Positions 8,818 through 60,125 of a stretch of 64,000 nucleotides of DNA are shown here, piece after piece (positions within the stretch are counted from its first letter, which is position 1; the number at the start of each line of letters is the position of its first letter). Under the pieces are notes generated by a model. That model ran no database searches, was not told where the DNA came from, and saw nothing but the letters and a program-made list of their open reading frames with translations. The position numbers and the translations under genes are program-made. The DNA is from an uncultured Muribaculaceae bacterium. GTDB taxonomy: Bacteria > Bacteroidota > Bacteroidia > Bacteroidales > UBA932. The stretch spans positions 347 to 64,346 of the forward strand of contig CAZSLC010000011.1 in NCBI GenBank assembly GCA_964607675.1. Reading direction: 5' to 3'.

Positions 8818-8833
8818 ATCATTAAATTAAATA

Positions 8834-25456: not shown

Positions 25457-25467
25457 AATGATAGAAA

Positions 25468-26691: not shown

Positions 26692-26719
26692 ATAGTTGTA
26701 ATTCTTTATTATCAATTTA

Positions 26720-38345: not shown

Positions 38346-39005
38346 TTATTTTCTAAACTTCCTCCTCATTGCCATATAAAAGCCATGAACAGCAGAAGAG
38401 TTTTCATCCCAATCCCCAAACGAGGAGTGCAGATAATCTATTGCATTAGCAAATGAATCGAGTGTATTGATATGATTGACAGCCAATTCAAATAGTTTAT
38501 CCTCATCGTCGAACAACTCTCTTATAAAATAAATTTTATCATTTATTGAAAAAGCATCTCTCAAATCTAATACTTTCTCACCTACTGGATCATCATATAT
38601 GACACTTTTATCATATTCTCTCGCTTCATCTATTTCTTCATTTCTCACTTCTTCACTTTTTCTTTTATCCATAACCACATTCTCATTTATCTCCTCATTT
38701 ATCTCCTCATTTATCTCCTCATTTATCTTATCATTTATCTTATCACTTATCTTCTCACTTATCTTCTCACTTTTTTGTGCTCTTTCCTCTACTATTTTCT
38801 CCCCCATCTGAGCAACTATCTGCGCAATTCTTTCAGTAACTTTTTTTTCCACCCTCTCCTCTTCATTTTTCATAGAATTGTATAGTGCATCGTTTTGTTT
38901 CGATTTAAGTGCCTCAATTTCATTTCTCTGGGCAGTTAACTCCTCTGTAACCAAAACAGTCAATAGCTCTAATATTGATTTTATCTCTGAAATTCTATCA
39001 TCCAT
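38346..39005 (-). CDS. Hypothetical coiled-coil/acidic protein with a tetrapeptide-repeat tract and a conserved C-terminal domain
   Basis: ORF with an ATG start, 1-nt gap to rsmI. EKISEKISDKINDKINEEINEEINEEINE tract. I recognise no family. Confidence 0.5.
   Translation of the reverse strand: MDDRISEIKSILELLTVLVTEELTAQRNEIEALKSKQNDALYNSMKNEEERVEKKVTERIAQIVAQMGEKIVEERAQKSEKISEKISDKINDKINEEINEEINEEINENVVMDKRKSEEVRNEEIDEAREYDKSVIYDDPVGEKVLDLRDAFSINDKIYFIRELFDDEDKLFELAVNHINTLDSFANAIDYLHSSFGDWDENSSAVHGFYMAMRRKFRK
38682..38772 (-). repeat. In-frame 12-bp tandem repeat, about 7.5 units (ctcatttatctc and variants)
   Basis: Direct reading: three perfect ctcatttatctc units, then ctcatttatctt, atcatttatctt, atcacttatctt, ctcacttatctt and a partial unit. 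Confidence 0.85.
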
Positions 39006-41603: not shown

Positions 41604-42476
41604 TTAAGCATTTTTATTGTTAGATTGCAAATAGGTTTGAAAAAGGACAGATAATACTATCATCGCAACCCCCACATAGAATGATAGATTCAACTCATTT
41701 GCCTCCCCAAAGAGTGTAAAAGCAAGAATAACACTATAAACTGGCTCAAGGTTAAAAGTCAAATTAACTGTGAAAGAGGATAAATCCTTAAGGGCATCAA
41801 TTTGAAAAATATATGGTACAATGGTACAGATAGATGCAAGAATGAACATCCACCCCATATCAACAGAGGTTGGGATAAGGGCACTTGCTGGCATAATAAG
41901 GAGATAAAAGGGCATCAAAGCAGACAAGGTGATAAAACCAGAGAACATCTCATAGAATAGCACATTGGTAGTTGTCGTTATTCCCCTCCAGTTTTTATTG
42001 AAAATTGTAAATAAAGCGGCAAGAATAGCAGAGATGATTCCATATAAGATACCAAGTCTGTACCTCGAATCAAAAGAGAAAATAAGGGCTACTCCAAATA
42101 GGGCAATAGCACTTAATACCACCTCTCGAAATGAAAATCTCTTTTTAGAAATAATAGGATTGAGAATGGCAGAAAAAAAACCAACGGTAGAAAAGCAAAT
42201 GACACCGATAGAAATATTTGATTTTATGATACTGCCGTAGAAAAACACCCAGTGCAGTGCTATCATTGCCCCGATAAAAAACAATTTTTTAAAATCGTGA
42301 AATTGTATCTTCTTGAAAGATTTTGAAAAAAGGAGAATGAGAATCAGCACGATAGAGGCAATCATCATTCTATACCATACGAAAGCAAACTCATCCAGAT
42401 GAATGAGTTTGCCGAATATGCCTGTAAATCCCGCAAGGAGTACAGCAATGTGTAGCTTTATGAGTGATGTTTTCAC
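41604..42476 (-). CDS. EamA/DMT-family transporter
   Basis: About 10 TM segments in two halves. GTG start overlapping the hydA stop (GTGA). Confidence 0.75.
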   Translation of the reverse strand: MKTSLIKLHIAVLLAGFTGIFGKLIHLDEFAFVWYRMMIASIVLILILLFSKSFKKIQFHDFKKLFFIGAMIALHWVFFYGSIIKSNISIGVICFSTVGFFSAILNPIISKKRFSFREVVLSAIALFGVALIFSFDSRYRLGILYGIISAILAALFTIFNKNWRGITTTTNVLFYEMFSGFITLSALMPFYLLIMPASALIPTSVDMGWMFILASICTIVPYIFQIDALKDLSSFTVNLTFNLEPVYSVILAFTLFGEANELNLSFYVGVAMIVLSVLFQTYLQSNNKNA

Positions 42477-43906
42477 ACTTGCTCTTGTGTCAATTTATAC
42501 AATTTCACGGAGTTATCAATTGTCTTTTCTTTCGCTTCATTGCCATATTTATCAACGTCAAAGACATTCTTAGGACTGTGAGTAATACATAATGCTCCAT
42601 TTACACAACCTCCCTCACAAGCCATTCCCTCAAAGAAATTTTCAGTTGCCTTCCCCATTTTAAGTCTCAAGAGAGCCTTTTTGCACTCATCTATACCACT
42701 CATATATATAGGAGAGACACCAGTTATCCCCATAGCCGTCCCAACATCAGAAATACCTTTGGTAATTCCACCCGATTTTGCAAATATTCTACCATAATAA
42801 GAGGCATTATCGAGGAGAGAATCTTCCATCTTAGTAGTGTCTATTCCCCTCGCATCAACGAATGCCTGCAACTCCTCAAATGACATGACTGAATCAATCA
42901 CCCCATTGGTCTTTGCCATTTTATACTCCATCTTTTTAGAGCTGCATGGCCCTATAAAGACTATTTTAGCATTGGGATCAGAATGTCTTATCAACATAGC
43001 TGTCTCTATCATTGGAGATGGGGAATGAGAGATGTATTGAACCAACTCAGGGAAATATTTTTCTATATACATCACAAATGAGGGGCAACAAGAGGTGGTC
43101 ATGAGTTTCTTCTCATTCCACTCTTGTGCTTCGTGATATAGTGTAATATCAGCCCCCAATGCCGCCTCAACTACCTGATGGAAACCGAGTTTCTTAATGG
43201 CAGTTACCACCTGAGTAACCCTTCCATACGCACACTGACTCACAATAGCTGGAGCTATGATGGCGTAAACTTTATATTTAGTATTATCTTCCGATTTCTT
43301 TAAGATATCGATAATATCGAGTACTAAAGATTTGTCAGTGATAGCACCAAAAGGACATTTATAAATACAAGCTCCACAAGAGATACATTTATCGTTATTG
43401 ATAACTGCTTTCTTTTGATCATTCATAGATATTGCTTTCACTTTGCAACTTTGGATACAAGGACGATGTTGCTGAATAATAGCTCCATAAGGACACACTT
43501 GGGTACACTTACCACACTCAATACATTTGCTTTTATCTACCACTGATTTATTTTCAACAATAGAAATTGCCCCCTTAGGACATACCTCCTGGCAACTATG
43601 CATTATACATCCACGGCAAGCAGGTGTCACGTATATCCCGTCAATAGGGCACTCGTCACATGCTATATCAATCACTTCAACCGAATTGGGATTTTCTTTG
43701 TGTCCACCCATCGCCATAGTGATTCTCTCTTGAACTATTGCTCTTTCTTTGTAAACACAACATCTTAATTCAGAACGGGGACCAGGACTAATCAATTTCG
43801 GAATTTCATTGTATGCTGTGTCCATTCCTCCATCGTAGGCACGCCTTATTACCTCTTTTAAAACTTTGTACTTTAATAATTGAACATTTGTATCAAAAAT
43901 TCTCAT
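42473..43906 (-). CDS. hydA: Catalytic [FeFe]-hydrogenase (monomeric, multiple ferredoxin-type clusters plus an extra N-terminal Cys-rich segment; group B-like)
   Basis: H-cluster motifs L1 TTSCCPSF, L2 GPCSSKKMEY, L3 EGMACEGGCVNG. Ferredoxin-type motifs CIECGKCTQVCP and CISCGACIYKCP. Confidence 0.88.
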   Translation of the reverse strand: MRIFDTNVQLLKYKVLKEVIRRAYDGGMDTAYNEIPKLISPGPRSELRCCVYKERAIVQERITMAMGGHKENPNSVEVIDIACDECPIDGIYVTPACRGCIMHSCQEVCPKGAISIVENKSVVDKSKCIECGKCTQVCPYGAIIQQHRPCIQSCKVKAISMNDQKKAVINNDKCISCGACIYKCPFGAITDKSLVLDIIDILKKSEDNTKYKVYAIIAPAIVSQCAYGRVTQVVTAIKKLGFHQVVEAALGADITLYHEAQEWNEKKLMTTSCCPSFVMYIEKYFPELVQYISHSPSPMIETAMLIRHSDPNAKIVFIGPCSSKKMEYKMAKTNGVIDSVMSFEELQAFVDARGIDTTKMEDSLLDNASYYGRIFAKSGGITKGISDVGTAMGITGVSPIYMSGIDECKKALLRLKMGKATENFFEGMACEGGCVNGALCITHSPKNVFDVDKYGNEAKEKTIDNSVKLYKLTQEQV

Positions 43907-43909
43907 AAC

Positions 43910-45073
43910 CTAATTATAAAATATATTTACTTTTTTTCCTATTATTCTTAGAATACTCGCAAGACGTTCTACCAGCTTAAGTTTCATTGTAGTATCAATC
44001 GGCAATCCTTGGTGAGCAATATTTACACTCCTACCCACAAAAAATGTAACCTCTGATGCCTCTTCGAGTAGAATCTGCGCCAATAGCGACGCCCCATCTT
44101 GCTTTGTAAATGATTTGGGGGTTAGATCATCCGCCAATATGTATTTTTCACACAGCTCAATAAGACGTCTCAATGTGATAACTCCTTCAGTTGTAAGGTC
44201 TATTCCCTCGATAAACCCTATTGGAGGGACATCTTTATCTGGAAAATCAAAACTTGTTCTAAGGTTTTTATTGAGATAACGGGCCACAATCTGAGAACTA
44301 GTACCTCCACAAACCACCTTCTTTGTATCCCCATCCATAAACTGTGCAACATATTGGTCGTCTTTGTTTTTGTCAACAGGGGGTCCCACCATTATATTTA
44401 CCTTTACACTTTTCCTCAATTTGACTGCTGCAACTGTTGTGTCATCTCCTGGTTTATCCAAATATAAATCGTTGCAAGCTGATGCCAACATACATGAGGC
44501 ACTTCTTGCAGACATATTTCTCTTTATATTGATATTTAGATGTTCCAAAATCTCCTTACGTTGCCACCCAAAGTTAAGAATCATCCCAACACCAGCGTGT
44601 ATAGTCCCATCCGACATAATAAATGCCATGTCGCCCTCATTGAGTTTTAATTTTGATTCATAAACCTTTTTTCCATATATCTCATGAAGATTTCTCTCAA
44701 AATCAACACATTTGCCATCATGATAATAGATAGCTTGAGGATTGTCAAATTCGAAAAGGACACCCTCTCCATCTTTGTTGATATGAATCACTGAAAATGT
44801 TGAATATGCGACCTCTCTCACCTTGCAAATAGGAAGTGTTTGAATCATCGTCTCAATACACTCCACTATGTCAATATCATTGGAGACCATTGTACATAAT
44901 ATCTTAGATGTAAGGGTTGACAGAATATTTGCTTTTACTCCACTGCCCAAACCATCTGCAAGGACCAAAGTCGTCCAATCTCCATTGATATGACACTCGA
45001 CATTGTCACCACAGAGCTCTTCGCCATATTTATTCAGCGATGTATATCCGTACTCAACGCATAGCTCCATCAC
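43910..45073 (-). CDS. SpoIIE/PP2C-family serine phosphatase with a C-terminal domain of unknown function
   Basis: GEELCGDNVE..LADGLGSGVKANILS..SDGTIHAG (PP2C/SpoIIE-type metal-binding Asp motifs). ATGA overlap with hydS and a 3-nt gap to hydA. Confidence 0.75.
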   Translation of the reverse strand: MMELCVEYGYTSLNKYGEELCGDNVECHINGDWTTLVLADGLGSGVKANILSTLTSKILCTMVSNDIDIVECIETMIQTLPICKVREVAYSTFSVIHINKDGEGVLFEFDNPQAIYYHDGKCVDFERNLHEIYGKKVYESKLKLNEGDMAFIMSDGTIHAGVGMILNFGWQRKEILEHLNINIKRNMSARSASCMLASACNDLYLDKPGDDTTVAAVKLRKSVKVNIMVGPPVDKNKDDQYVAQFMDGDTKKVVCGGTSSQIVARYLNKNLRTSFDFPDKDVPPIGFIEGIDLTTEGVITLRRLIELCEKYILADDLTPKSFTKQDGASLLAQILLEEASEVTFFVGRSVNIAHQGLPIDTTMKLKLVERLASILRIIGKKVNIFYN

Positions 45074-46785
45074 TCTCCTCCTTGTTCGTTTTCTTGAAGT
45101 GTTTTTTTCAATTTCAATAAAGCAACTTTCGTTTCAGCTGTAGTTTCTCCAAGCAACGACGCTATCTCTTGAGCTACACGCATTTGCTTCTTAATTACTT
45201 CATCTGTTGTGCTCAATGTTTCCATCCTCATCTTTGAGAGACTGTCACCATATTTAACACTATCTGTAACATCCTTCATGATTCCAAATAGGGCATGATT
45301 ATTACTCAAAAGATTGATTGAAAGATCTACATATTTTTTTGTTTCAGGTATATACATTCCTTCTTGTTCGATATGCCTCTTTTCACTCATTGCTATGAGA
45401 AAATCTGATGGATTAAAGAAATCGACAGCAGGAAGTCCCTTCAAATTGACAGCTGTAATACCAAGAAGCTCTTTCGCTTTATTGTTGATATCTATAACAT
45501 TTAAATCATTGTCTAATACAATAATCCCTTCAGGACTATTGTGAATGATCTCATAGGACATTGTTTCAGCCTTTTCTCTCATAAATGGAAGACATATATC
45601 CCAATCTGCATAACCATTTATCACGGCCCAAGCTTTTTCTCTACAAGTAGAATAACCACAAGCACCACAATTGAGCTCATCTTCTGGTTTAAATTTGCCT
45701 ATCTTATGAAGGAGGGCTGTGATCTCAGCTTCAGTCCCTGGTACACTTTTGGCCCTCAATCTTGGATAACTGGCCCTTAAGTCAACATCGTATTTAAAAT
45801 CTGTTGGTTCAGGAGGCAGGGTGGATATATCTTTCTTGACATATTTTCGCAAATCCATAGTGGCTTTGATGCTGTCCCCTTTCTTGGTGAGACTGCAAGG
45901 TCCATTGACACAAGCATCCCTACAAACATTCATTTCAAGAAAAACTCCCGACAAAGTATCGATGTTCTTTAATACATGAAGGCATCTTCCAGGACCATCC
46001 ACAGCCATATATTCATATCCTTTAGGTAGAGTATCAAAAGATTTGATGATACCATGACTGATGGGATATGATTTTGAAAGATTTGCAAACTTCTTCTTGT
46101 TATTTACCTTTAACTTGGAAATCTCATCAAGGATAATTCCTTTTTCCTCGAACATTATGCTAAGGTCCTCAAAGGTAAGGACACCATCAATCAAAGAACT
46201 TTCGCGTGCCTCACGCTTTTTAGCTAAACAAGGACCAACAAAAATAATTTTTGCGTTAGGGTATTCCTTTTTTAAGATTTTGGCATGCGCAATCATGGGG
46301 GAGTCAACTGGTGCAAGATATTGGAGTGCTTTGGGGTAATACTCTTGAATCATTCTGCACAGAGCTGGACAAGCAGAGGTGATAAAATTGGGATACTCTC
46401 CCGATTCGAGGAGCTTTTTATACTCCTTTGTCACCGCATTGGCACCCACGGCCGTCTCCTCTGCATCTGCAAATCCGAGTTTTCCAAGTGCTATTCTGAA
46501 AATTGAGAAGTCATCAATACCAAAACTTGAGACAAAAGATGGAGCAACACTTGCAAATACCATATCACTCTCCTTCAAGATTTTTTTGATATTGTCCATC
46601 TCACTATGCACTATTTTCGCATTTTGAGGACATACAATGGTGCAAGTACCACACAAAATACACCTTTCAGGTATAATTTTAGCTTGATGGTCCTTAACCT
46701 CAATTGACTTTACAGGACACTCTCTCAAGCACTTATAACAATCTTTACATCGAGCAGGTTTAAACTCGAGATATTCAGTTATCAT
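45070..46785 (-). CDS. Sensory [FeFe]-hydrogenase-like protein (HydS/HfsB-type, group C-like) with a C-terminal PAS domain
   Basis: Two ferredoxin-type motifs (CKDCYKCLRECP, CILCGTCTIVCP). Modified H-cluster motifs TSACP / GPCLAKKRE / EMNVCRDACVNG. Extra CGACGYSTC..C motif. PAS (aa ~408-510). Helical tail. Confidence 0.8.
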   Translation of the reverse strand: MITEYLEFKPARCKDCYKCLRECPVKSIEVKDHQAKIIPERCILCGTCTIVCPQNAKIVHSEMDNIKKILKESDMVFASVAPSFVSSFGIDDFSIFRIALGKLGFADAEETAVGANAVTKEYKKLLESGEYPNFITSACPALCRMIQEYYPKALQYLAPVDSPMIAHAKILKKEYPNAKIIFVGPCLAKKREARESSLIDGVLTFEDLSIMFEEKGIILDEISKLKVNNKKKFANLSKSYPISHGIIKSFDTLPKGYEYMAVDGPGRCLHVLKNIDTLSGVFLEMNVCRDACVNGPCSLTKKGDSIKATMDLRKYVKKDISTLPPEPTDFKYDVDLRASYPRLRAKSVPGTEAEITALLHKIGKFKPEDELNCGACGYSTCREKAWAVINGYADWDICLPFMREKAETMSYEIIHNSPEGIIVLDNDLNVIDINNKAKELLGITAVNLKGLPAVDFFNPSDFLIAMSEKRHIEQEGMYIPETKKYVDLSINLLSNNHALFGIMKDVTDSVKYGDSLSKMRMETLSTTDEVIKKQMRVAQEIASLLGETTAETKVALLKLKKTLQENEQGGE

Positions 46786-46800
46786 TATATTATGTAAATA

Positions 46801-47079
46801 TTATTTATTCAATAAAGGATATATTTCTTTAAGGAATTTATCCTCTGCATTTTCTTTATTCACATTGTGAACAAAAATATCATTCCCTTGATTATCAGCC
46901 TCCTCACCTTTCACAGTAACCCCTTCAGCACAGAAACCAAGACAAAAACTTGCTTGTAAATCCACTAAATCTTCAACATCATATTTTTTTAAGAGCTTTT
47001 TCATCTCCTCAATAACATCATAAGATCCTTTAAGATGGCAAGAGCTGCCGACACATACTTTTACTACCATAGTTTGCAT
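46801..47079 (-). CDS. Thioredoxin-like [2Fe-2S] ferredoxin (NuoE/HndA-like small protein)
   Basis: CX4C (VCVGSSCHLKG) plus CX3C (SFCLGFCAEG) spacing; 92 aa. Lies 15 nt upstream of hydS. Confidence 0.65.
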   Translation of the reverse strand: MQTMVVKVCVGSSCHLKGSYDVIEEMKKLLKKYDVEDLVDLQASFCLGFCAEGVTVKGEEADNQGNDIFVHNVNKENAEDKFLKEIYPLLNK

Positions 47080-48468: not shown

Positions 48469-48506
48469 GATTGAAATATTTTGCAAAAGTATAATTAAAA
48501 AACCAA

Positions 48507-48839
48507 TTATCTGATATAATGTGGCATCTCATCTGGAATGACAATTGAAAACTCGACAAGGCCACAAATTACCCCCTCTTTTCTCCACGGAGTTTGGTAG
48601 ATAATCTTCTTCATCCCGTTTTTTGAGATGGTATAAGAATTGGACTCTCCTGTCGCTAAGAGGTGTTGTATTTTATCCCAAGAGGAAGCTTTATGACAAT
48701 CAACAAGATTTTTGCCAATCAAATCACCATGAGAGGCAAAAGTAGCTTTTGATTTATCATTCATATATAATATTGTCCCTTCTGTATCACATACAGTTAT
48801 GGCACAATTCAATTCCTTAACCCATTCAAACATAGTCAT
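48507..48839 (-). CDS. Stand-alone small PAS-domain protein
   Basis: ITVCDTEGTILYMNDKSKATFASHGDLIGKNLVDCH.. has a PAS-like pattern. Start set at ATG 48839 because the longer ORF would overlap the DPP4 3' end. Confidence 0.5.
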   Translation of the reverse strand: MTMFEWVKELNCAITVCDTEGTILYMNDKSKATFASHGDLIGKNLVDCHKASSWDKIQHLLATGESNSYTISKNGMKKIIYQTPWRKEGVICGLVEFSIVIPDEMPHYIR

Positions 48840-48844
48840 ATTTA

Positions 48845-51088
48845 TTATCTTCCTCCTGAAGGAAGGTGTTCTTTCCAATATTTTTCCATAGTCCTATATA
48901 GATGCAAAGTGGTATTTTCTCTTTCATATATACCATGAGAACGCATGGGATAAGAGAACATAGAGAACAACTTGTTATCTTTCACCAATTCATTGACAAG
49001 CCATTCACAACTTTGGTAATGGACATTGTCATCACCTGTCCCATGAATTAAGAGAAGATTGCCTTTGAGGTTTGCAGCAAAATTGATGGGAGATCCTCTG
49101 AAATATCCATCTTTATTGGTAGAAGGGAGCCCCATATATCTCTCTTGGTATATTGTATCATAGAGAAGTTGACTTGAGACAAAGGCAACAGCTATACCAG
49201 TATTGTATATTTCTGGATATTTAAACATTGCATGGAGAGTAGAAGATCCACCTCCACTCCATCCCCACACACCGATTCTGTCTCTATCGACAAATGAATA
49301 TGTATCACATATCTTAACAACAGCCTTCGAATGGTCTTCAGGGGCTACAATGCCAACTTTACCATATATCGATTTCCTCCACTCTCTTCCCCTTGGGTTG
49401 TTAGTACCTCTTGGATCTACACTCATTACGATATAGCCTTGCTGTGCCATATATTGAGACCATAGATCTGATCTGGACCACACATTTTGCACTGTTGACG
49501 ACCATGGTTCGCCATAGACATAGAATATAACTGGGTACTTTTTGGATGCGTCAAAATGTTTCGGTTTAATCATCCATCCATCTAATTCTATTCCCTCACC
49601 AATTGGAACTCTGAAATATTCTTTGTTGCTTAAGGAGAGGTTATCATATTTAGTTTTCAACTCGCTATTGTCCTCCAGAACCCTCAACAATTTATGGTCA
49701 GGGAGAGAAATCATATCATATACCTTTGGTGTATGTGAATTTGAAAAAGAGTGAAGAGCATATTTAGCATTATTAGAGAGTTGATACCCGTGGTGCCCCT
49801 CAACTCCATATGGTGTAACTCTTTCTGCATTAGATTTGCCATTTAATTTACTGCGGTATAAATAATTCTCAACAGCACTTTCTGGAGAGGCCATATAATA
49901 AACATAACCCCCTTTCGCATCAATACAGACAATGGAGATAACATCAAAATTGCCTTTTGTTATGAGTGTTTCACTTTTGCCGTCTCTTGAGACTTTATAT
50001 AAATGTCTCCACCCATCTTTTTCGCTTGTCCAAGTAAAATATTTTTCATTTTCAAGCCACACTATATTGTCGTGAATATCGAGAAAAGCATCATCTTTAT
50101 CAGTAATGATGTTATTGACACTCATATCGATTACATTGCACAAATAGACCTGATTTGTATTTTGTAACCTATTGAGTTGCTGAATCATCACCTCGTCGGA
50201 ATTGGGTATAAATTCCATTCTTGCAAGGTAGTTATTGCGTGGGTCTCCAGGGATATCAAACCATTTTGTCCCCTTCTCGTTAATATCTATCACCCCTATA
50301 CGTGCAGCCGAATTAAGAGTTCCCACTTTGGGGTATGGAAACGGAAGAACTTGAGAGTATATGGAATCAAGGTTATTTATCATGTTGAAAACACCTGTTC
50401 CCTCAGTATCAAACTGCCAATATGCAATTCGTTTTCCATCAGGACTCCATCTGAAACCATCTTTTTGGTGAAGTTCCTCTTCATATACCCAATCAAAGTT
50501 GCCATTGATGATTACATCGCTTCCATCGAAAGTGAGTTGCTTAATTTGAAAATCAGTAAGATCTTCAACATAAATATTATTTTTATATACGAAAGCTACT
50601 TTATCTGATTTGGATGAAAATTTGGCAAACATCAACTCAGAGGGATCGAGAGAGGCCCCTATTTGATGAAGTGCTCTACTCTTGAGATCAAGCACCCAAT
50701 AATCTCCCTTAGTGTTTACTCGCCAAACACGTTTGGAATTTGTGAAAATCAATAGTTTTGTAAAATCATCAGACCAAAAATAGTTTTCAATCATCAATGG
50801 TTTTTGCCCCTCAGAAGGAATCAAACTGTTAGCAGAGACAAGAATTTCTTTTGTGCCACTTTTGGCATCATATTTCACTATATCTGTCCCTTTAGTTTGG
50901 GGATTTCTTTCAATAACTGTGTAAGATTTATTATCGTTCATCCAACGTATTGAATTAACACCTTTTGCCGAATAAACACCACTCGAGAAAATATCCTCAA
51001 GCGTCAAAATATCCTGCCCAGAAATAGCTCCTGAAAAGGATATAGTGAATAAGATCACAGGGATTAATGAATAATATATTTTTCTCAT
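48845..51088 (-). CDS. Dipeptidyl-peptidase IV (S9B prolyl dipeptidyl peptidase)
   Basis: N-terminal beta-propeller region (FDWVYEEE), catalytic GVWGWSGGGS, C-terminal GTGDDNVH. ATG 51088 is the start; TTG 51112 lies inside the -7 box. Confidence 0.88.
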   Translation of the reverse strand: MRKIYYSLIPVILFTISFSGAISGQDILTLEDIFSSGVYSAKGVNSIRWMNDNKSYTVIERNPQTKGTDIVKYDAKSGTKEILVSANSLIPSEGQKPLMIENYFWSDDFTKLLIFTNSKRVWRVNTKGDYWVLDLKSRALHQIGASLDPSELMFAKFSSKSDKVAFVYKNNIYVEDLTDFQIKQLTFDGSDVIINGNFDWVYEEELHQKDGFRWSPDGKRIAYWQFDTEGTGVFNMINNLDSIYSQVLPFPYPKVGTLNSAARIGVIDINEKGTKWFDIPGDPRNNYLARMEFIPNSDEVMIQQLNRLQNTNQVYLCNVIDMSVNNIITDKDDAFLDIHDNIVWLENEKYFTWTSEKDGWRHLYKVSRDGKSETLITKGNFDVISIVCIDAKGGYVYYMASPESAVENYLYRSKLNGKSNAERVTPYGVEGHHGYQLSNNAKYALHSFSNSHTPKVYDMISLPDHKLLRVLEDNSELKTKYDNLSLSNKEYFRVPIGEGIELDGWMIKPKHFDASKKYPVIFYVYGEPWSSTVQNVWSRSDLWSQYMAQQGYIVMSVDPRGTNNPRGREWRKSIYGKVGIVAPEDHSKAVVKICDTYSFVDRDRIGVWGWSGGGSSTLHAMFKYPEIYNTGIAVAFVSSQLLYDTIYQERYMGLPSTNKDGYFRGSPINFAANLKGNLLLIHGTGDDNVHYQSCEWLVNELVKDNKLFSMFSYPMRSHGIYERENTTLHLYRTMEKYWKEHLPSGGR

Positions 51089-51143: not shown

Positions 51144-52400
51144 TTATTTTACAACTATGATATCTTCCAACTTGGTAGTGTAAGATGGTGAGACATGATT
51201 TCTATTTGAGAAAAAATTCATATCATTTGACGAGGCTAAAGAGATAGCTCCACACTTGTTCAATCTATTAATTTCATCAATAGTTTTCATCAATTTTGAA
51301 TGTTTTTCATGATCTATCGAGTCAAAGATAACACCTTGCATCTGGTTAGAGCTACTTATCTGAGAAAGGATGATCCCTCCCCTTTTATAGGCATACCCAC
51401 TTCTAAAAATGGAATTAAGGAGCACTATAGCCTTACTTGCTATCTCAATGGTACTATCTGTTGCCACCTCAAATATATGAATGGCCGATTCAAATTGTTG
51501 GGACATCTCCTTTTTAAATGGATTGGTCTGAATGAAAACTCGAATCTGCGAAGTAAGTCCATATTGTCTCCTCAATTTGGCAGCGGCAATTGAGGCAAAT
51601 GACGAGATTGCACTCCGTAGTTCGTCAAAGGAGGTTATTTCTTGAGAAAATGATCTCGAAACACATATTGTCTCTTTATCTTGGGGAGAAAACTCAATCT
51701 GATAGGCAGGCTCCCCCTTGAGTTCCATCCAAATCCTCTGTCCAACCACCCCCATTTCTCCCTTTATCCAATTTGAAGGGAGGGAGAGAAAATCGGCGGC
51801 AGTGAGGATGTTTTTTTTGCGAAGCAGTGCACCGAAGCGGCGACCAATTCCCCACACATCCTCAATGGGAAATTTATGAAGTACCTTATCAATATCTCCC
51901 CCCCTATACATTAAGCAGCACCCCTCTAACTTAGGATATTTCTTACAGAGTTTCGAGGCTATTTTTGCCAATGTTTTGGTAGGGGCAATCCCTATACTGA
52001 CAGGTATCCCTGTATTGCGCCGTATAATCTTTGAGAGGGATCTGCCATATTGTTCCAAATCATCAAGTTGGAATAAGGAAAAATCGAGAAATGCCTCATC
52101 AATGGAATAAACCTCAACCACAGGGACATACTGCCTCAAAGTGCTCATAACCCTGTTGGACATATCGCAATAGAGCTGATAATTACTGGAAAACACCTTG
52201 ACATTCTCCCTTTTTACCAACTCTTCAATTTGAAAAAGGGGGACTCCCATTTTTATACCGAGGGACTTTGATTCATTGCTTCTTGCAACCACACAGCCAT
52301 CATTGTTGCTCAGCACCACAATAGGCTTTCCCTCCAAATCTGGACGGAACACCCTCTCGCAGGAGGCAAAAAAGTTGTTACAATCACATAGACCTATCAT
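51144..52400 (-). CDS. umuC: Y-family translesion DNA polymerase (UmuC-like, Pol V catalytic subunit)
   Basis: LCDCNNFFASCERVFRPDL, VVLSNNDGCVVARS, SIDEAFLD, VSIGIAPTKTLAK. ATGA overlap with umuD. Confidence 0.88.
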   Translation of the reverse strand: MIGLCDCNNFFASCERVFRPDLEGKPIVVLSNNDGCVVARSNESKSLGIKMGVPLFQIEELVKRENVKVFSSNYQLYCDMSNRVMSTLRQYVPVVEVYSIDEAFLDFSLFQLDDLEQYGRSLSKIIRRNTGIPVSIGIAPTKTLAKIASKLCKKYPKLEGCCLMYRGGDIDKVLHKFPIEDVWGIGRRFGALLRKKNILTAADFLSLPSNWIKGEMGVVGQRIWMELKGEPAYQIEFSPQDKETICVSRSFSQEITSFDELRSAISSFASIAAAKLRRQYGLTSQIRVFIQTNPFKKEMSQQFESAIHIFEVATDSTIEIASKAIVLLNSIFRSGYAYKRGGIILSQISSSNQMQGVIFDSIDHEKHSKLMKTIDEINRLNKCGAISLASSNDMNFFSNRNHVSPSYTTKLEDIIVVK

Positions 52401-52777
52401 TTCATCTCCTTAATAAGATATCTTACAACCCCCCATACTCTAAAGTCATTCTCCGCAGAGACATCAATTGGCTTAAATTTCAGATTGGCGGGAACAAGTT
52501 GAGCATGATCCCCACAAAGACGAAATCTTTTGAGGGTGAACTCTCCGTCGAGAAAACAAACAGCAATGCATCCATCGTAAGGTTCTACACTCTTGTCTAT
52601 CACAAGGAGGTCTCCATCATTGATTCCATCATCAATCATGCTATCCCCTTTTACCCTTGCATAAAAGGTTGAAGAGGGATTTTTAATCAATTCTCTATTA
52701 AGATCTAATGGTAAATTGACGAAATCCTCGGCTGGTGAAGGAAAACCTGCACAAATAACTAAAAAATCTTGTTTCAT
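52397..52777 (-). CDS. umuD: UmuD-like S24 self-cleaving peptidase (Pol V accessory subunit)
   Basis: CAGFPSPAEDF cleavage-site region, nucleophile motif KGDSMID, general base in FTLKRF; 126 aa. Confidence 0.85.
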   Translation of the reverse strand: MKQDFLVICAGFPSPAEDFVNLPLDLNRELIKNPSSTFYARVKGDSMIDDGINDGDLLVIDKSVEPYDGCIAVCFLDGEFTLKRFRLCGDHAQLVPANLKFKPIDVSAENDFRVWGVVRYLIKEMK

Positions 52778-53059: not shown

Positions 53060-56000
53060 TTGACTGAAAACACCTATATAGAACTCGAAACACAGCTGAC
53101 TAACAACGAATTAGATGCATATTTTGCAATAATTCCAAATGAAGAAAAAGAAAGAGAATTCATCATCCCTATCAAATATATATATTTTGACATAGTGTGC
53201 CGAAAAGGGTTAGGTATTGAGAGTATTGAGGATTTAAATGGAAAAGAGGTGGTAATCATGGGGGGGAGCAGATGTGATAAAATATTGAGAGAGAATAACA
53301 TTAATTGCTCAATATTTTATTACAAGACGATAGAAGAGGGGATAAAGGCTATCAATCAAGGGAGACACGACGCTGTCCTTTGCCCAAATATGATGGGCAA
53401 GTACTTATTGTCAGAAATAAACGAAAGCAAGAATCTTATAACTAAACAAACCCACACAGAACCTTATATAGCCGCCATAATAGTCAAAGACCAAGATCTT
53501 TACACTCATATGTCAAATACCATGAACCTTCTTAAAAAAAGTGGAAAGTATGAGGAGATATATTATAAATGGTTTGGCGAATATGAACAGATGTATCCAG
53601 ACAAAAGTTTACAACATACCATTTATATATTTACAGGGTTATTAATATTGTTACTCTCATTTTTCCTAATTCTAATTAAGAAAAGGTCAGACATCATTCA
53701 CAATAAATACCTTGGTATGGTAAGGAGTGTAGAAAAGGATTACCTTGAGCTGAATACTATATACTCTAACGTATCAGCTGGTATCGAGGTGTATGATAAA
53801 GATGGATTTTTGATCAACTGCAACGATAGAGCAATAGAAATATTTGGAATAACCAACAAAGAGATTCTTTTGTCTAAAAGACTCAACATATTAGATGATA
53901 TTTATTACAAATCTACCATCAAATCTTTAGATGATCTAATGGTAGTACATCAAATCACTATTGAAATTGGCAATAAAGAAATTGAGGAGGAGAATCAAGA
54001 TTTTCTGAAAAGAATAGATAGTCGCATAGTCACCGCCATTTTCAGTCCTATGTTTAATTCAAAGGGTGAAATTGAAGGGTTTATAATAACTACCACTGAC
54101 GAGACACATGAACACAAATTGAATAAAAAGTATTTATCTCTATTAAAAGAAAACCAGACTTTGTTAGAGACCGTCCCCTTAGGCATTGTTTCATACAACC
54201 TCAATGGGGATGTCAATTATAGAAATTCTCACCTGTCAAGAATTTTTAATATTGACCCAGAAAAATACGATTCCAAAGATTGGAATTTATTTACACATCC
54301 CCATTTTTGTCAAGACAAATATAAAAATGAGATTCTCAACTGCACAGAGACTATTACAGGGACATTCAACGTTGACAACTCCAATCCAAGATATCTAAAA
54401 AGGTATTCTGATATATTGTACAACCGAACAATACAATATTTCATATCTCCTCTAAAAGATGATCATGGAGATGATATTGGATGGGTAGGTGCATATTCTG
54501 ACATAACTGACATTAAAAATCAGATGGATGAAATAGCAAGGAACAAAGAGTTGCTGGAGCTTGCCCTAAAGAGTGGTAACATTTCATCATGGAGATACAC
54601 CCCTAATGATAAACAATTCACATCCATTCAAGAACACACAGAAACTTACTCATCTGTAGCTCAATACAATAGCTCTTCAAAACAACTTGATGAACAATAT
54701 ACGTTACAGAGAGATGCCATGATTGATAATATTCTCAGTGGTAAACAGTATAAAGATTCAAAAATCTTAAAATTCACTAATCCAGACACGAAAGAGACAA
54801 TATATCTTGACACTCACATAGTTGCTGAAACACGCAATGGAAAAACCATAGGGATTATTGGCATTCAAGCTAATATAACAAAAGACTATTCTTACCGCTT
54901 AGCAATAGAAGAGATAAACTTGAAAAACAAATTGGCTATTCGCACGGGTGGACTCGCTCAATGGGACTATGACACTGAGACTCATATTTTTTACACAAAA
55001 CGTGAATCTCTCAAATCAAATACCCTCAATCAATATACTAAGGATGAATTGATCTCTAAATCACACCCTAAGGATCTTGAAAAAGTAATTGCATTTTTTG
55101 AAAAAATGGATAGCGGTGCTGATGAGAATATTTTTTGTGAAGCAAGAATACTGAATACAGATACCAATAAGTGGAGGTACTATATTGCATCGGGGAGTCC
55201 ATTTGTCAAATCTACAAATGGGAAGGTGGTTCAATACACAGGATTTAGAAAAGACAACACCACATTTGAGAATCTCAACAATGAGATTTTAAAAACCAAT
55301 GAAATAATGAGAAATGTATTTGACAATCTTCCATGTACCCTTTTTATAAAAAACATTTCAGATGATTTTAAATATATTATCGGGAATAAACAATTGTGTG
55401 AAGTTACTGGCCTAAAGAGTGAAAATATAATAGGATTTAACGATTATCAATTGTTTCCAGACAAAGCCAAGGACTTCAGGGAGGATGATATAAAGGCAAT
55501 TAAGAGAGGATCCATTATTTCTTTCCATGAAACAGTGAGCTGGAACAACCATCCAAGAATATTAAAGACTGCCAAATTTCCTTTAACACTATCAGATGGT
55601 GGTCAATTGCTGGTAGGCTTGGCACTTGATGTAACTGAACTAGTTGAAAAAAATATTGAGCTTCAAAAGGAGAAGGAGAAGGCTGAGTGCTCAGATAAAC
55701 TAAAATCTGCATTTTTAGCAAACATGTCTCACGAGATCAGAACGCCACTCAACTCTATCGTTGGTTTTTCTACTTTACTTGTTGAGAGTGAAGACAAAGA
55801 AGAAAAGAAATGTTTCAAAGATATAATCACAAACAACAGCAACCTCCTCCTTAGAGTTATTAACGATATTCTCGATCTCTCAAAAATCGAATCAGGATCC
55901 ATAGATTTTAATAAAGAATTAATAGATTTCAGTAAAGTTTTCGATAGTTGCTTTAGGAGTTTTGTTGAAAAAGGGAAAGAAAAGGGGCTCAACATGATAA

Positions 56001-56365
56001 TTGACAACCCATACGATGAGTGCATTGTACTTACTGATCAAAACAGAGTATCTCAAATATTACACAACTTTATCTCTAATGCACTAAAGCACACATCTAA
56101 TGGATTCATCAAAATAGGATATAGCTATGAGGAGAAGGGACTTATGATATATGTAGAGGACTCTGGAAGAGGTATTCCAGATGATAAAAAGAATTTAATA
56201 TTTAATAGATTTGAAAAATTAGATGATTTCTCACAAGGCACTGGACTTGGACTCTCTATTTCAAAAGCCATCATTGATTCTATTGGCGGAAAAATAGGAT
56301 TTGAATCAGAAGTGGGTAAAGGGAGTACATTCTGGGCCTGGATCCCTTGTGAAAAGGAGAATTAA
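53060..56365 (+). CDS. Sensor histidine kinase 1 (periplasmic solute-binding domain, TM, multiple PAS, HisKA, HATPase_c); 5' end disrupted by an in-frame stop, possibly a pseudogene
   Basis: SBP_bac_3-like N-domain, TM IYIFTGLLILLLSFFLILI, several PAS/PAC-like repeats, H-box LANMSHEIRTPLNSIVGF, G-boxes DSGRGIP and GTGLGLSISK. No receiver domain. The TTG at 53060 is simply the first possible start after the stop. Confidence 0.75.
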   Translation: MTENTYIELETQLTNNELDAYFAIIPNEEKEREFIIPIKYIYFDIVCRKGLGIESIEDLNGKEVVIMGGSRCDKILRENNINCSIFYYKTIEEGIKAINQGRHDAVLCPNMMGKYLLSEINESKNLITKQTHTEPYIAAIIVKDQDLYTHMSNTMNLLKKSGKYEEIYYKWFGEYEQMYPDKSLQHTIYIFTGLLILLLSFFLILIKKRSDIIHNKYLGMVRSVEKDYLELNTIYSNVSAGIEVYDKDGFLINCNDRAIEIFGITNKEILLSKRLNILDDIYYKSTIKSLDDLMVVHQITIEIGNKEIEEENQDFLKRIDSRIVTAIFSPMFNSKGEIEGFIITTTDETHEHKLNKKYLSLLKENQTLLETVPLGIVSYNLNGDVNYRNSHLSRIFNIDPEKYDSKDWNLFTHPHFCQDKYKNEILNCTETITGTFNVDNSNPRYLKRYSDILYNRTIQYFISPLKDDHGDDIGWVGAYSDITDIKNQMDEIARNKELLELALKSGNISSWRYTPNDKQFTSIQEHTETYSSVAQYNSSSKQLDEQYTLQRDAMIDNILSGKQYKDSKILKFTNPDTKETIYLDTHIVAETRNGKTIGIIGIQANITKDYSYRLAIEEINLKNKLAIRTGGLAQWDYDTETHIFYTKRESLKSNTLNQYTKDELISKSHPKDLEKVIAFFEKMDSGADENIFCEARILNTDTNKWRYYIASGSPFVKSTNGKVVQYTGFRKDNTTFENLNNEILKTNEIMRNVFDNLPCTLFIKNISDDFKYIIGNKQLCEVTGLKSENIIGFNDYQLFPDKAKDFREDDIKAIKRGSIISFHETVSWNNHPRILKTAKFPLTLSDGGQLLVGLALDVTELVEKNIELQKEKEKAECSDKLKSAFLANMSHEIRTPLNSIVGFSTLLVESEDKEEKKCFKDIITNNSNLLLRVINDILDLSKIESGSIDFNKELIDFSKVFDSCFRSFVEKGKEKGLNMIIDNPYDECIVLTDQNRVSQILHNFISNALKHTSNGFIKIGYSYEEKGLMIYVEDSGRGIPDDKKNLIFNRFEKLDDFSQGTGLGLSISKAIIDSIGGKIGFESEVGKGSTFWAWIPCEKEN

Positions 56366-56384
56366 TAGATTTAACACATTTACA

Positions 56385-59129: not shown

Positions 59130-60040
59130 AAGACACTTATCTCTGTTAAGGTAGTGAGGAGTTCGAGCATTTTCATGCCCCATACGGAATTTCCTTTTTT
59201 ATTAAGTCTCGGAGACCATACTGCTACTGAGTAATGGTTGGGGCATATAGCAGCTATTCCACCTCCCACTCCACTCTTGGCAGGGAGCCCTACCAGATAT
59301 GAAAATTCCCCTGCCTCATCATACAATCCACAAGTTTGCATTATGGCATTGATTCTTTTTACTTGCGAAGAGGTAAGGTTTATCTCCCCTATGCTAAAAG
59401 ATTTTTTATGATTGGCAAAATTATTAAATGCCATTGCCAATTCGGTACAACTCATCTCAATAGAGCATTGATAAAAATAAAAGTTTAAAAGTCTCTCAAT
59501 ATCAGAGTCAATATTTCCATAATATTTTAACATATTAGAGATGGCGGCATTGAGATAACCTGTTTTAAATTCCGATTTTGCGACAGAGAGATTATAATTG
59601 ACTGTGTCCACTCCGCACAATCCTCGTACAAAGTCGAGGTACTCTTTTTCTGGATCTTTTAAAACAGAGAGAAGCATGTCAGAAATAACTAAAGCTCCTG
59701 AATTAATTAATGGATTTCGTGGGCGACCTTTTTCCATCTCAAGCTGTATCACAGAGTTAAATGGCATACCTGAAGGTTCAACCCCTACCCTTTTCCATAT
59801 ATTCTCTCCGTAGAAACTTATCCCCATGGCCAATGAGAAAACTTTTGATATACTTTGTATTGAGAACCTCACCTGAGAATCACCAAGAGAATATTTTTTT
59901 CCATTAGTGGTGACAATGGATATTCCATACTGATTGGGGTCAACTTTTTTCAACTCTGGTATATAAGATGCCTGCTCTCCCAAAGAGATTAAAGAGTTTG
60001 ATTCCTCATATATTTTTGTCAATATCTTGTTGTAGTCCAT
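59126..60040 (-). CDS. glsA: Glutaminase A
   Basis: SIQSISKVFSLA (Ser-x-x-Lys), NPLINSGA, GLPAKSGVGGGI. ATG 60040 (MDYNKIL..) gives the usual ~305 aa. Confidence 0.9.
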   Translation of the reverse strand: MDYNKILTKIYEESNSLISLGEQASYIPELKKVDPNQYGISIVTTNGKKYSLGDSQVRFSIQSISKVFSLAMGISFYGENIWKRVGVEPSGMPFNSVIQLEMEKGRPRNPLINSGALVISDMLLSVLKDPEKEYLDFVRGLCGVDTVNYNLSVAKSEFKTGYLNAAISNMLKYYGNIDSDIERLLNFYFYQCSIEMSCTELAMAFNNFANHKKSFSIGEINLTSSQVKRINAIMQTCGLYDEAGEFSYLVGLPAKSGVGGGIAAICPNHYSVAVWSPRLNKKGNSVWGMKMLELLTTLTEISVF

Positions 60041-60125
60041 ATTTGAAATATAAAGCATAAATGTATTGTATGTTTTTATATTTTGCAAAAAAGGTGTAAA
60101 ATTGCATATCATTTATATTATTAAT

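Follow-up and report, generated by a model that had tools for sequence, protein, structure and literature searches.

The window, that is, the whole stretch of 64,000 nucleotides that was analysed, comes from an uncultured Bacteroidales bacterium of gut type and contains an intact, ordinary copy of a known and very widespread four-gene hydrogen-sensing operon (Table 1). The region probably works as a functional hfsABCD-type module in which a sensory hydrogenase signals to a phosphatase. The initial annotation had described four tightly coupled genes here, and an ORF check found all four open reading frames at those coordinates on the minus strand, with domain contents and intergenic gaps (15, -1 and 3 nt) that agree with that description; the same four genes were called by an independent gene caller on an identical metagenome contig. 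The phosphatase start, given as GTG 45073, did not stand: the homologues point to ATG 45070 as the probable start, which yields a protein of 386 aa like all of them and would create a TGATG sequence with a 1-nt overlap with the sensor stop codon. Cofactor and catalytic residues are intact in all four proteins, and the GC content of the module equals that of the host window. The spacing to the non-hydrogenase neighbours is equally tight, since an M24 peptidase gene lies 9 nt upstream and the downstream EamA gene overlaps the module by 4 nt.

Table 1. Positions in the window of the module, its genes and their domains, and of a candidate promoter motif.
Feature	Position	Strand	Basis
Four-gene hydrogen-sensing module	42473-47079	minus	ORFs and domain searches
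hfsA-like gene, thioredoxin-like [2Fe-2S] ferredoxin, NuoE/HydC type, 92 aa (or 89 aa)	46801..47079	minus	PF01257
hfsB/hydS-like gene, 571-aa group C (M2f-type) putative sensory [FeFe]-hydrogenase	45070..46785	minus	Domains, motifs, tree
Two N-terminal [4Fe-4S] ferredoxin-type motifs, sensor residues 8-56	46618..46764	minus	Fer4 family matches
H-cluster domain, sensor residues 76-296	45898..46560	minus	PF02906, E 6e-42
C-terminal four-Cys [4Fe-4S] site, sensor residues 371-400	45586..45675	minus	PF04060, E 1.7e-9
PAS domain, sensor residues 408-508	45262..45564	minus	PF13188, PF00989, PF13426
Post-PAS tail motif, sensor residues 530-560	45106..45198	minus	Conservation, 70 sensors
hfsC-like N-terminal half, residues 1-220, SpoIIE/RsbU-type PPM (PP2C) Ser/Thr phosphatase domain	44411..45070	minus	PF07228
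hfsC-like C-terminal half, residues 222-386, unannotated three-layer alpha/beta domain	43913..44407	minus	Conservation, model
hfsD-like gene, 477-aa group B monomeric [FeFe]-hydrogenase, catalytic enzyme	42473..43906	minus	TIGR04105
Candidate Bacteroidetes-type -7 promoter motif TACTTTTG (low confidence)	48484..48491	minus	Pattern scan; ahead of M24 peptidase gene

The modified H-cluster motifs and the PAS domain first noticed in the 571-aa product were both recovered, as was its proposed identity as a group C sensory hydrogenase. The protein contains two Fer4 domains, a Fe_hyd_lg_C domain (E 6e-42), the PF04060 four-Cys FeS motif and a PAS domain, which is the full group C/M2f architecture, and a C-terminal [4Fe-4S] site like the one it has unites groups C and D (PMC13104023). 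Its H-cluster motifs, read from the translation, are TSACP, GPCLAKKRE and EMNVCRDACVNG, and all three Pfam PAS models exceed their cutoffs, as does TIGR00229 (27.7 bits, cutoff 22.9). The NCBIfam group B model gave only 193 bits, under its cutoff, and a tree of H-domains places the protein within a monophyletic sensor clade, separate from group B and group-A-like enzymes. The H-cluster and accessory-cluster cysteines are all invariant among 70 homologues, including C373, C376, C381 and C398 of the C-terminal site (70/70), and the eight Cys of the N-terminal Fer4 motifs are kept in 69/70 sequences. The H-domain of the window sensor carries A138, G184 and N286, which put Ala at CpI-C299, Gly at M353 and a residue other than Met at M497. 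This is the signature of TmHydS, a biochemically characterised group C sensor (PMC10055695) that also resembles it in having two [4Fe-4S] clusters, an H-domain, a C-terminal [4Fe-4S] cluster and a PAS domain; neither protein has Met at M497, which is Asn in the window protein and Ser in TmHydS. Gly at M353 is found in all 70 sensors and Asn or Ser at M497 in 69 of them, whereas the proton-relay Cys is retained by 40/70, which means that the family does not carry the "slow sensor" signature throughout. The most conserved stretch of the sensor is its post-PAS tail (majority-residue fraction up to 0.89 across 70 sensors), a near-invariant motif of ~30 residues, VIxKQMRV[AV]QEIASLLGET[TA]AETKxALxKLK. 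No Pfam or NCBIfam model covers residues 530-560, searching a database with the tail alone gave nothing but fragments and the tail was not found described in the literature on such modules; it may be a helix for signalling or docking.

The two outer proteins of the module were also as first described. The HfsA-like product is a thioredoxin-like 2Fe-2S protein by its PF01257 match (27.5 bits, cutoff 24.8), with weak NuoE/HoxE matches in NCBIfam and Cx4C...Cx3C cysteines (C9, C14, C46 and C50) that are invariant in 64 homologues; the NCBI copy starts three codons later (89 aa). The 477-aa product has several Fer4 domains and Fe_hyd_lg_C (E 1e-56), and its motifs, read from the translation, are those of a canonical catalytic hydrogenase (TSCCP, GPCSSKKME and EGMACEGGCVNG); TSCCP, GPCxxKKxE and EGMxCxGGC are invariant in 60 homologues. 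Initially called "group-B-like", it belongs to group B proper, since TIGR04105 (FeFe_hydrog_B1) matches it with 537.2 bits (cutoff 450) over residues 4-443 and model positions 1-461 of 462. It is of the same class as the gut Bacteroides group B hydrogenase, reported as the main fermentative H2 producer of the human gut in a study that does not discuss the gene context or regulation of this enzyme (Welsh et al. 2025).

The phosphatase assignment is supported by a SpoIIE match (PF07228, E 1.6e-10) and by a SpoIIE-like fold in the AlphaFold model, which has a pLDDT of 88.8 and finds SpoIIE (5mqh, E 5e-15), as well as RsbU and RsbX, in Foldseek. Degeneracy of this gene had been raised as a concern, but all four PPM metal motifs (CGDN, ADGLGSG, SDG and DDTT, read from the translation) are intact, and G21-D22, D39-G40-x-G42-S43-G44, D154-G155 and D209-D210 are invariant in an alignment of 28 diverse homologues. 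SpoIIE, RsbU, RsbP and RsbX share with the HfsC-like protein the PPM fold and metal-binding motifs and are its best structural matches. In RsbP a PAS domain is joined to the PP2C domain by a helical linker, an arrangement that resembles a fused version of the sensor PAS-plus-tail and HfsC. Unlike the partner-switching phosphatases, HfsC has neither a STAS substrate nor an RsbW-type kinase encoded in the window or by conserved neighbours of the module, and its regulatory domain lies at the C-terminus and has an unannotated fold. This domain has invariant motifs (GPP, CGG, PP, TEGxxT and G...N), is kept down to 31% identity across hundreds of 50%-identity clusters and is modelled confidently (pLDDT 88.5, pTM 0.85). 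It has no consistent Pfam match, its best PDB sequence match (a SIS-type isomerase, E 0.036) and best Foldseek match (methylglyoxal synthase, E 0.014, TM 0.4-0.5) are not significant, and it was not found described in the literature on such modules.

The module is far commoner than the initial annotation implied, as at least 592 species-representative genomes carry this type of phosphatase. Among the best 80 module loci, the sensor adjoins the phosphatase in 73/73, 70/72 have HfsA upstream of the sensor and about 59/74 have a group B hydrogenase beside the phosphatase; these loci span Bacteroidales, Clostridia, Treponema and Erysipelotrichaceae. The sensor-phosphatase partnership is strict across phyla. 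About 20% of loci have no hydrogenase beside the phosphatase. Three related Bacteroidales loci keep sensor and phosphatase without such an enzyme, which means that the hydrogenase next door is not necessarily what the system acts on. Genes for AdhE, Rex and a kinase of the APH/RIO fold recur beside the module, and many Clostridia loci have the layout rex-adhE-kinase-hfsA-hydS-PP2C-hydrogenase. The window copy is not flanked by these three genes; Rex, AdhE and the hydE/F/G maturases were not found anywhere in the 64 kb and, as previously noted, neither was a Ser/Thr kinase or STAS protein. The genes for the kinase and target of the window copy must lie elsewhere, unless the target belongs to the module itself. 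A pair of large sensor histidine kinases is encoded ~6 kb upstream on the other strand and looks unrelated.

Among the closest known systems are hfsABCD of Thermoanaerobacterium saccharolyticum, as initially proposed, and of T. thermosaccharolyticum, together with Clostridium thermocellum Clo1313_1796-1793. [quoted passage not shown] In contrast to Thermoanaerobacterium hfs, the window module belongs to a Bacteroidales host, not a thermophilic Firmicute, and lies after a Xaa-Pro aminopeptidase gene and before an EamA transporter gene. In T. saccharolyticum, deletion of hfsA or hfsB increases ethanol yield, an effect that requires intact hfsC and hfsD (PMC5707799; PMC11837493), and deletion of hfsB increases hydrogenase activity (PMC5707799). 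Ruminococcus albus 7 likewise has a group C PAS-hydrogenase and a Ser/Thr phosphatase co-transcribed with a ferredoxin-dependent hydrogenase, in an eight-gene cluster (group A1 HydA2, AdhE, HydS, Ser/Thr phosphatase, kinase and Rex) whose transcripts are repressed 111-fold once H2 is removed (PMC6776011). The AdhE, Rex and kinase neighbours of the module's relatives match this cluster, whereas in the window the catalytic partner is group B, not A1, and AdhE, kinase and Rex are absent.

Onto the observed gene set, order, coupling, residues and partnership a mechanism can be placed from knowledge of these families, from which we infer that the signal is H2 and that the neighbouring hydrogenase is controlled, along with which way signalling runs and what the phospho-target is. 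HfsB/HydS would bind H2 at a slow, sensor-tuned H-cluster and exchange electrons with the co-encoded [2Fe-2S] HfsA through its accessory [4Fe-4S] clusters. Its redox or conformational state could be relayed from the C-terminal [4Fe-4S] site, by way of the PAS domain and then the near-invariant helix at the C-terminus, to HfsC, the translationally coupled PP2C, probably inside a stable complex. HfsC would then change how one or more targets are phosphorylated on Ser/Thr, and this may tune H2 production by the group B HfsD and fermentative redox balance. The field still describes group C and D enzymes as "putative" H2 sensors.

It is unlikely that the four proteins instead make up one heteromeric H2-making "Hfs" complex, as first proposed when hfs was named, with the PAS-hydrogenase as a second catalytic or electron-transfer subunit and the PP2C as a regulatory or scaffold subunit for self-control only. 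The short gaps would imply stoichiometric co-translation, gene order is strictly conserved, every H-cluster ligand is kept by the sensor (the proton-relay Cys also in 40/70 relatives), no external target is encoded nearby in the window and T. saccharolyticum has lower hydrogenase activity when the entire operon is deleted (PMC5707799); yet deletion of hfsB raises rather than lowers this activity (PMC5707799), and in T. thermosaccharolyticum hfsD expression alone suffices for the phenotype (PMC11837493). Furthermore, the loci without a hydrogenase beside the phosphatase, including the three from Bacteroidales, argue against such a complex, and the AdhE, Rex and kinase neighbours point to a wider regulatory output.

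Quite unlikely is a PAS-hydrogenase that senses cellular redox (reduced ferredoxin via HfsA, or NADH) and not H2, with its H-domain a vestigial or structural scaffold. The four H-cluster cysteines and sensor-specific second-sphere residues are invariant in 70 sequences, which speaks for an H-cluster that works and is tuned, TmHydS takes up the [2Fe] subsite and reacts with H2 (PMC10055695) and the R. albus cluster responds to the H2 level (PMC6776011). These data outweigh the dedicated [2Fe-2S] partner co-encoded in 70/72 loci, the frequent proximity of Rex, an NADH sensor, and the group D enzyme TamHydS, whose C-terminal cluster gave no response to H2 (PMC13104023).

Lastly, the Bacteroidales background first assumed was confirmed by the independent marker Obg, and the 62-70% identity of the module proteins to Clostridia, Treponema and Erysipelotrichaceae counterparts suggests an old lateral transfer. 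No Bacteroides, Phocaeicola or Prevotella isolate genome is among the best 80 module loci, and the sole "uncultured Bacteroides sp." MAG clusters with Firmicutes sequences. That the module is a laterally acquired passenger, no longer functional in its host, is hardly credible: the cross-phylum identity and nesting inside Firmicutes diversity do point to transfer, and the kinase, AdhE and Rex of fuller Clostridia versions and the maturase genes are missing from the window, but none of the four ORFs is broken and each catalytic and cofactor residue is retained, many Bacteroidales genomes have the same arrangement at 70-80% identity, and the module matches the GC content of the window and is embedded in a tight host operon. 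Sigma-70 and terminator scans showed no enrichment against shuffles, and a pattern scan found no -7 motif in the 9-nt gap preceding hfsA; the nearest motif of this type upstream of the module and outside coding sequence is TACTTTTG, a low-confidence promoter candidate.

The locus is a minimal hfsABCD-type module, of a known and very common kind, in an uncultured Bacteroidales bacterium, and sequence comparisons indicate that the module in this window is probably of Firmicutes ancestry. All four open reading frames listed in the initial annotation were found at their coordinates on the minus strand, and an independent gene caller predicted the same genes on a metagenome contig of 14.5 kb with identical sequence; the hydrogenase motifs quoted for the 477-aa and 571-aa products are also present in the translations. 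The genes are co-directional, in the order small Fe-S protein, PAS-hydrogenase, PP2C phosphatase and catalytic hydrogenase, with gaps of 15 nt between hfsA and the sensor gene and 3 nt between the phosphatase and hydrogenase genes; the module lies 9 nt from the upstream M24 aminopeptidase gene and overlaps the downstream EamA gene by 4 nt. The four HfsA cysteines (Cx4C...Cx3C) are all invariant among 64 relatives. The phosphatase gene itself stood, its GTG start probably did not: judging from the homologues, essentially all of which have 386 aa, translation most likely begins at an ATG that creates a TGATG overlap with the sensor stop codon. A few bases 5' of this ATG there is a perfect match to a Shine-Dalgarno-like sequence, AAGGAGGAG, overlapping the final sensor codons, and nothing comparable precedes the other three module genes. 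Shine-Dalgarno sequences are generally little used in Bacteroidota, and for this reason AAGGAGGAG may be a relic of Firmicutes origin, or it may merely be the codons for the QGGE tail.

Coordinates of features in the window and in related loci of the comparison set (L handles)
Feature	Sequence	Position	Strand	Content
hfsA, 92 aa	window	46801-47079	-	thioredoxin-like 2Fe-2S domain (Pfam)
HfsB/HydS-like sensor gene, 571 aa	window	45070-46785	-	two Fer4 motifs, [FeFe]-hydrogenase H-domain, 4-Cys 'FeS' motif, PAS domain (Pfam)
Phosphatase gene from GTG, 387 aa	window	43910-45073	-	SpoIIE (PPM/PP2C; Pfam)
Phosphatase ATG, most likely start	window	45070	-	
AAGGAGGAG	window	45074-45082	-	
Hydrogenase gene, 477 aa	window	42473-43906	-	several Fer4 motifs, H-domain (Pfam)
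Candidate -7 motif just ahead of M24 peptidase gene	window	48491		
Candidate -7 motif ahead of CNNM gene	window	41606		
123-aa ORF	window	48507-48878	-	
umuD-umuC pair	window	51144-52777	-	S24 peptidase, Y-family polymerase
-7 motifs upstream of umuD-umuC	window	52790, 52835		
Tandem sensor histidine kinase genes, 1101 and 942 aa	window	53060-59129	+	periplasmic SBP_bac_3 and PAS domains
Glutaminase gene	window	59126-60112	-	
219-aa ORF	window	38346-39005	-	
Four-gene DUF4493/PCMD run	window	20992-28843	-	three genes with DUF4493, three with PCMD
263-aa ORF, fourth gene of the run	window	22542-23333		
APH/RIO-fold phosphotransferase gene	L013	3256-4014		PF01636
APH/RIO-fold phosphotransferase gene	L015	3197-3952		PF01636
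Third hydrogenase-like gene, 453 aa	L017	8639-10000	-	
Third hydrogenase-like gene, 453 aa	L023	8626-9987	-	

The likeness to hfsABCD is correct for domain content and gene order: in Thermoanaerobacterium, HfsA is a small protein, HfsB a PAS-containing [FeFe]-hydrogenase homologous to HydS of R. albus, HfsC a serine phosphatase and HfsD a ferredoxin-linked (group B) hydrogenase (PMC5707799, PMC11837493). The T. saccharolyticum Hfs proteins (ACU11594-ACU11597) are likened to the module by their published domain content and order. Loss of hfsA or hfsB in Thermoanaerobacterium gives a higher ethanol yield, hfsB loss also increases adhE expression and viologen-linked hydrogenase activity, and the ethanol effect depends on intact hfsC and hfsD (PMC5707799, PMC11837493); expression of hfsD alone is enough for the phenotype (PMC11837493). 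In R. albus, an eight-gene cluster including a ferredoxin-only hydrogenase, AdhE, a group C sensor and a Ser/Thr phosphatase subunit is repressed 111-fold once a partner organism removes H2 (PMC6776011). The best-supported reading of the module is a path from an H2 sensor through a phosphatase to a target; what the signal is, which way it runs and what it acts on are taken by analogy from work on other organisms. The sensor, with HfsA as electron partner, would report the H2 level by its tuned H-cluster, and the signal would travel from the C-terminal cluster to the PAS domain, the tail and then the translationally coupled PP2C phosphatase, which would shift the phosphorylation state of targets setting H2 output and fermentative redox balance.

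This type of phosphatase was found in at least 592 species-representative genomes. Among the best 120 of at least 8000 candidates, clusters were nearly all 382-390 aa long (most of them 386) and at least 71% identical, every named match being 'Bacteroidales bacterium'. When representatives clustered at 50% identity were searched exhaustively, 1776 clusters matched (409 with E < 1e-30), and most of the matches listed were full-length (about 380-400 aa). The locus is one among many near-identical copies and adds no new principle. In the best 80 related loci the sensor and the phosphatase are strict partners, the sensor gene lying directly 5' of the phosphatase gene in 73/73 (71 scored by script plus two loci with a 1-2-nt overlap). 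HfsA is encoded 5' of the sensor in 70 of 72 cases and a group B hydrogenase just 3' of the phosphatase in about 59 of 74 (58 scored by script plus a frameshifted copy in L006), so that the hfsABCD order is kept in most of these loci. Three Bacteroidales loci (L007, L009 and L010; Candidatus Coprenecus, Alistipes sp.) share the M24 and CNNM flanks of the window and retain hfsA, sensor and phosphatase, with no group B hydrogenase adjoining the phosphatase (about 7150-9250), which indicates that the sensor-phosphatase core can exist without a neighbouring catalytic gene. That the products assemble instead into one heteromeric hydrogenase complex of which the phosphatase is a built-in part, a reading to be set beside both the prevailing four-gene order and these three neighbourhoods, seems unlikely.

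Additional genes were seen in some of the related loci. In L009, the space 3' of the phosphatase holds two minus-strand ORFs. L017 and L023, both from Bacteroidales, have a third hydrogenase-like gene, convergent and just 3' of the group B hydrogenase, whose product is about 27% identical to the sensor. Many Clostridia loci (L025, L026, L053, L055, L058, L065, L067, L068, L071, L078 and L079) carry two tandem hfsA-like genes 5' of the sensor rather than one.

With respect to a kinase that would oppose the PP2C enzyme, the only recurrent kinase-like neighbour in the 80 loci was a gene coding for an APH/RIO-fold phosphotransferase of about 249 aa, as in L013 and L015, often following adhE and rex. 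It was present in 19 loci (among L013-L079), in 18 of them just 5' of hfsA, and its carriers were Clostridia, Treponema and Erysipelotrichaceae (Bacteroidales, 0/19); we consider it a candidate for the opposing kinase. AdhE is encoded beside the module in 19 loci and Rex in 10, several Bacteroidales among them, the fullest layout being rex-adhE-kinase-hfsA-hydS-PP2C-hydrogenase. None of the three (APH/RIO-fold kinase, AdhE, Rex) is encoded within the window. Furthermore, neither a STAS-domain substrate nor a HATPase_c anti-sigma kinase is encoded with the phosphatase in the window, and none of the 80 loci has a STAS protein or RsbW-type kinase beside the module, which is not a classical partner-switching system (PP2C, STAS anti-anti-sigma factor and RsbW/SpoIIAB kinase). 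The two sensor histidine kinases of the window were rejected as the missing kinase: they lie on the opposite strand, with umuDC and peptidase genes in between, and are not conserved beside the module elsewhere. The 123-aa ORF was also discarded as a module partner, since its PAS matches are all below the Pfam cutoffs and in relatives it adjoins DPP-IV, on the strand opposite the module.

The 477-aa enzyme, initially described as 'group-B-like', is group B proper, because it passes the curated NCBI model for monomeric [FeFe] hydrogenases at full length (TIGR04105, FeFe_hydrog_B1; 537.2 bits, cutoff 450; residues 4-443 against positions 1-461 of 462) and its canonical L1, L2 and L3 H-cluster motifs (TSCCP, GPCSSKKME and EGMACEGGCVNG) are invariant among 60 relatives. 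No hydE, hydF or hydG maturase gene was found in the 64-kb window. A recent study, which did not address regulation in Bacteroidia, reported that fermentative H2 production in the human gut is dominated by group B [FeFe]-hydrogenases (PMC12578642); the module shows that some uncultured Bacteroidales couple such an enzyme to the same sensor-phosphatase pair by which Ruminococcus and Thermoanaerobacterium govern their H2-dependent changes in fermentation.

The sensor reached only 193 bits on TIGR04105, with the H-domain alone covered, and its H-cluster motifs are TSACP, GPCLAKKRE and EMNVCRDACVNG. Group C (M2f) sensors have been defined by two N-terminal [4Fe-4S] clusters, an H-domain, a C-terminal [4Fe-4S] cluster and a PAS domain, the latter being absent from group D (PMC13104023), and the window's sensor has the complete set: two ferredoxin-type motifs at residues 8-56 (eight cysteines kept in 69/70 relatives), an H-domain (PF02906, E 6e-42) with the H-cluster ligands C139, C186, C288 and C292 invariant in 70/70, a C-terminal four-Cys site (PF04060; all four invariant among relatives) and then PAS models above their cutoffs. 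Across the 70 sensors there is essentially no variation at any of the 16 cluster-binding cysteines. In T. maritima HydS, the second-sphere residues A131, G177 and S267 correspond to C299, M353 and M497 of CpI (PMC10055695); the window's sensor has the non-canonical A138, G184 and N286 at these sites, thus sharing Ala and Gly with TmHydS and having Asn where the latter has Ser. All of the 70 sensors have Gly at the M353 position (70/70) and 69/70 have Asn or Ser at M497; at C299, 40 carry Cys, 27 Ala and 3 Ser. In a neighbour-joining tree of H-domains, built without bootstrap or named reference sequences, the 70 sensors including that of the window were monophyletic, as were the 60 group B enzymes, with nine group-A-like sequences outside both, so the 45070-46785 product falls in the sensor clade, as first proposed, and not among the catalytic enzymes. 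The literature still calls the H2-sensing role of group C enzymes putative, and a sensor responding to redox rather than to H2 is an alternative that we regard as improbable.

The phosphatase on which the proposed H2-sensing path depends matches PF07228 with 41.7 bits (cutoff 25), and its AlphaFold model (pLDDT 88.8, pTM 0.83) gave SpoIIE (5mqh) as the best Foldseek match of the N-terminal half (E 5e-15, probability 1.0), RsbU and RsbX matching as well. G21-D22, D39-G40-x-G42-S43-G44, D154-G155 and D209-D210 are invariant in 28 homologues down to 30% identity. The concern that the gene might be a degenerate remnant lacking its metal-binding aspartates is thus dispelled, the metal-coordinating D22, D39, D154, D209 and D210 all being among these residues. 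With catalytic and cofactor residues intact in the module, the idea that it is a non-functional passenger is barely credible.

Two conserved elements of the sensor-phosphatase pair are uncharacterised. One is the C-terminal half of the phosphatase (residues ~222-386), which the whole family conserves and in which GPP, CGG, PP, TEGxxT and G...N motifs are invariant; the predicted structure of this half is a confident three-layer alpha/beta fold. No significant or consistent model was obtained for this domain with Pfam (whole protein, and a permissive scan of 28 members) or NCBIfam; a PDB profile search and Foldseek with a domain-only model also gave nothing significant, the best matches being a SIS isomerase (E 0.036) and methylglyoxal synthase (MGS; E 0.014, TM 0.4-0.5), respectively. 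Because none of five approaches gave a significant or consistent result, the SIS and MGS likenesses are only weak leads and we did not name the domain after either. The second element is the sensor tail, 30 residues following the PAS domain (~530-560), which exceeds every other part of the sensor in conservation, the H-domain included: the motif VIxKQMRV[AV]QEIASLLGET[TA]AETKxALxKLK is near-invariant among sensors only 35-40% identical overall. In a database search restricted to the tail, the only matches were fragments of 64-124 aa, apparently from the same sensors, and we found no description of either element in the hfs and sensory-hydrogenase literature cited here. Both are obvious candidates for the place where sensor and phosphatase would touch. 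Tail and domain could even constitute a dedicated, undescribed signalling interface, working like a 'split RsbP' in which the PAS-linked helix of one protein switches the PP2C domain of another, or the conserved Ser/Thr of the tail could be the phospho-substrate, and the stripped-down Bacteroidales version, free of kinase, AdhE and Rex, could then exert direct post-translational control on the group B hydrogenase; this proposal is speculative and on balance rather doubtful. The minimal four-gene version, the tail and the C-terminal domain provide experimental handles on how the signal gets from sensor through phosphatase to target, and the two elements could make a long-standing signalling question testable.

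The Bacteroidales background of the window was borne out by its Obg GTPase, whose named top matches were only Bacteroidales, Bacteroidetes or Rikenellaceae (79-86% identity); families typical of Bacteroidota, including DUF4493/PCMD, DUF5683 and DUF4954, account for many of the genes in the window. Identities between the module proteins and those encoded by MAGs deposited as Clostridia, Treponema and Erysipelotrichaceae are 62-70%, and a phosphatase tree without bootstrap puts the Bacteroidales sequences in a mixed sub-clade that lies inside the Firmicutes diversity. These data fit a lateral transfer of old date, with Firmicutes as the most likely source; module and window have the same GC content, which argues that the transfer was not recent. 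In a scan for the Bacteroidetes-type -7 motif (TAnnTTTG), none was found in the 9-nt gap ahead of hfsA and candidates lay ahead of the M24 peptidase and CNNM genes, so the module is probably transcribed together with the M24 peptidase and EamA genes. Sigma-70 promoter and intrinsic terminator scans, based on a model unsuited to Bacteroidota, gave counts no higher than shuffled sequences.

Lastly, some other genes of the window deserve mention. A umuD-umuC pair with -7 motifs upstream heads the long minus-strand gene run that includes the hydrogenase module, and the tandem histidine kinase genes, which may encode an amino-acid-sensing pair, converge on a glutaminase gene. Neither Pfam nor NCBIfam gave a match for the 219-aa ORF, nor did Pfam for the 263-aa ORF. 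The four-gene run to which the latter belongs resembles a Bacteroidales-type surface lipoprotein or fimbria-like cluster.
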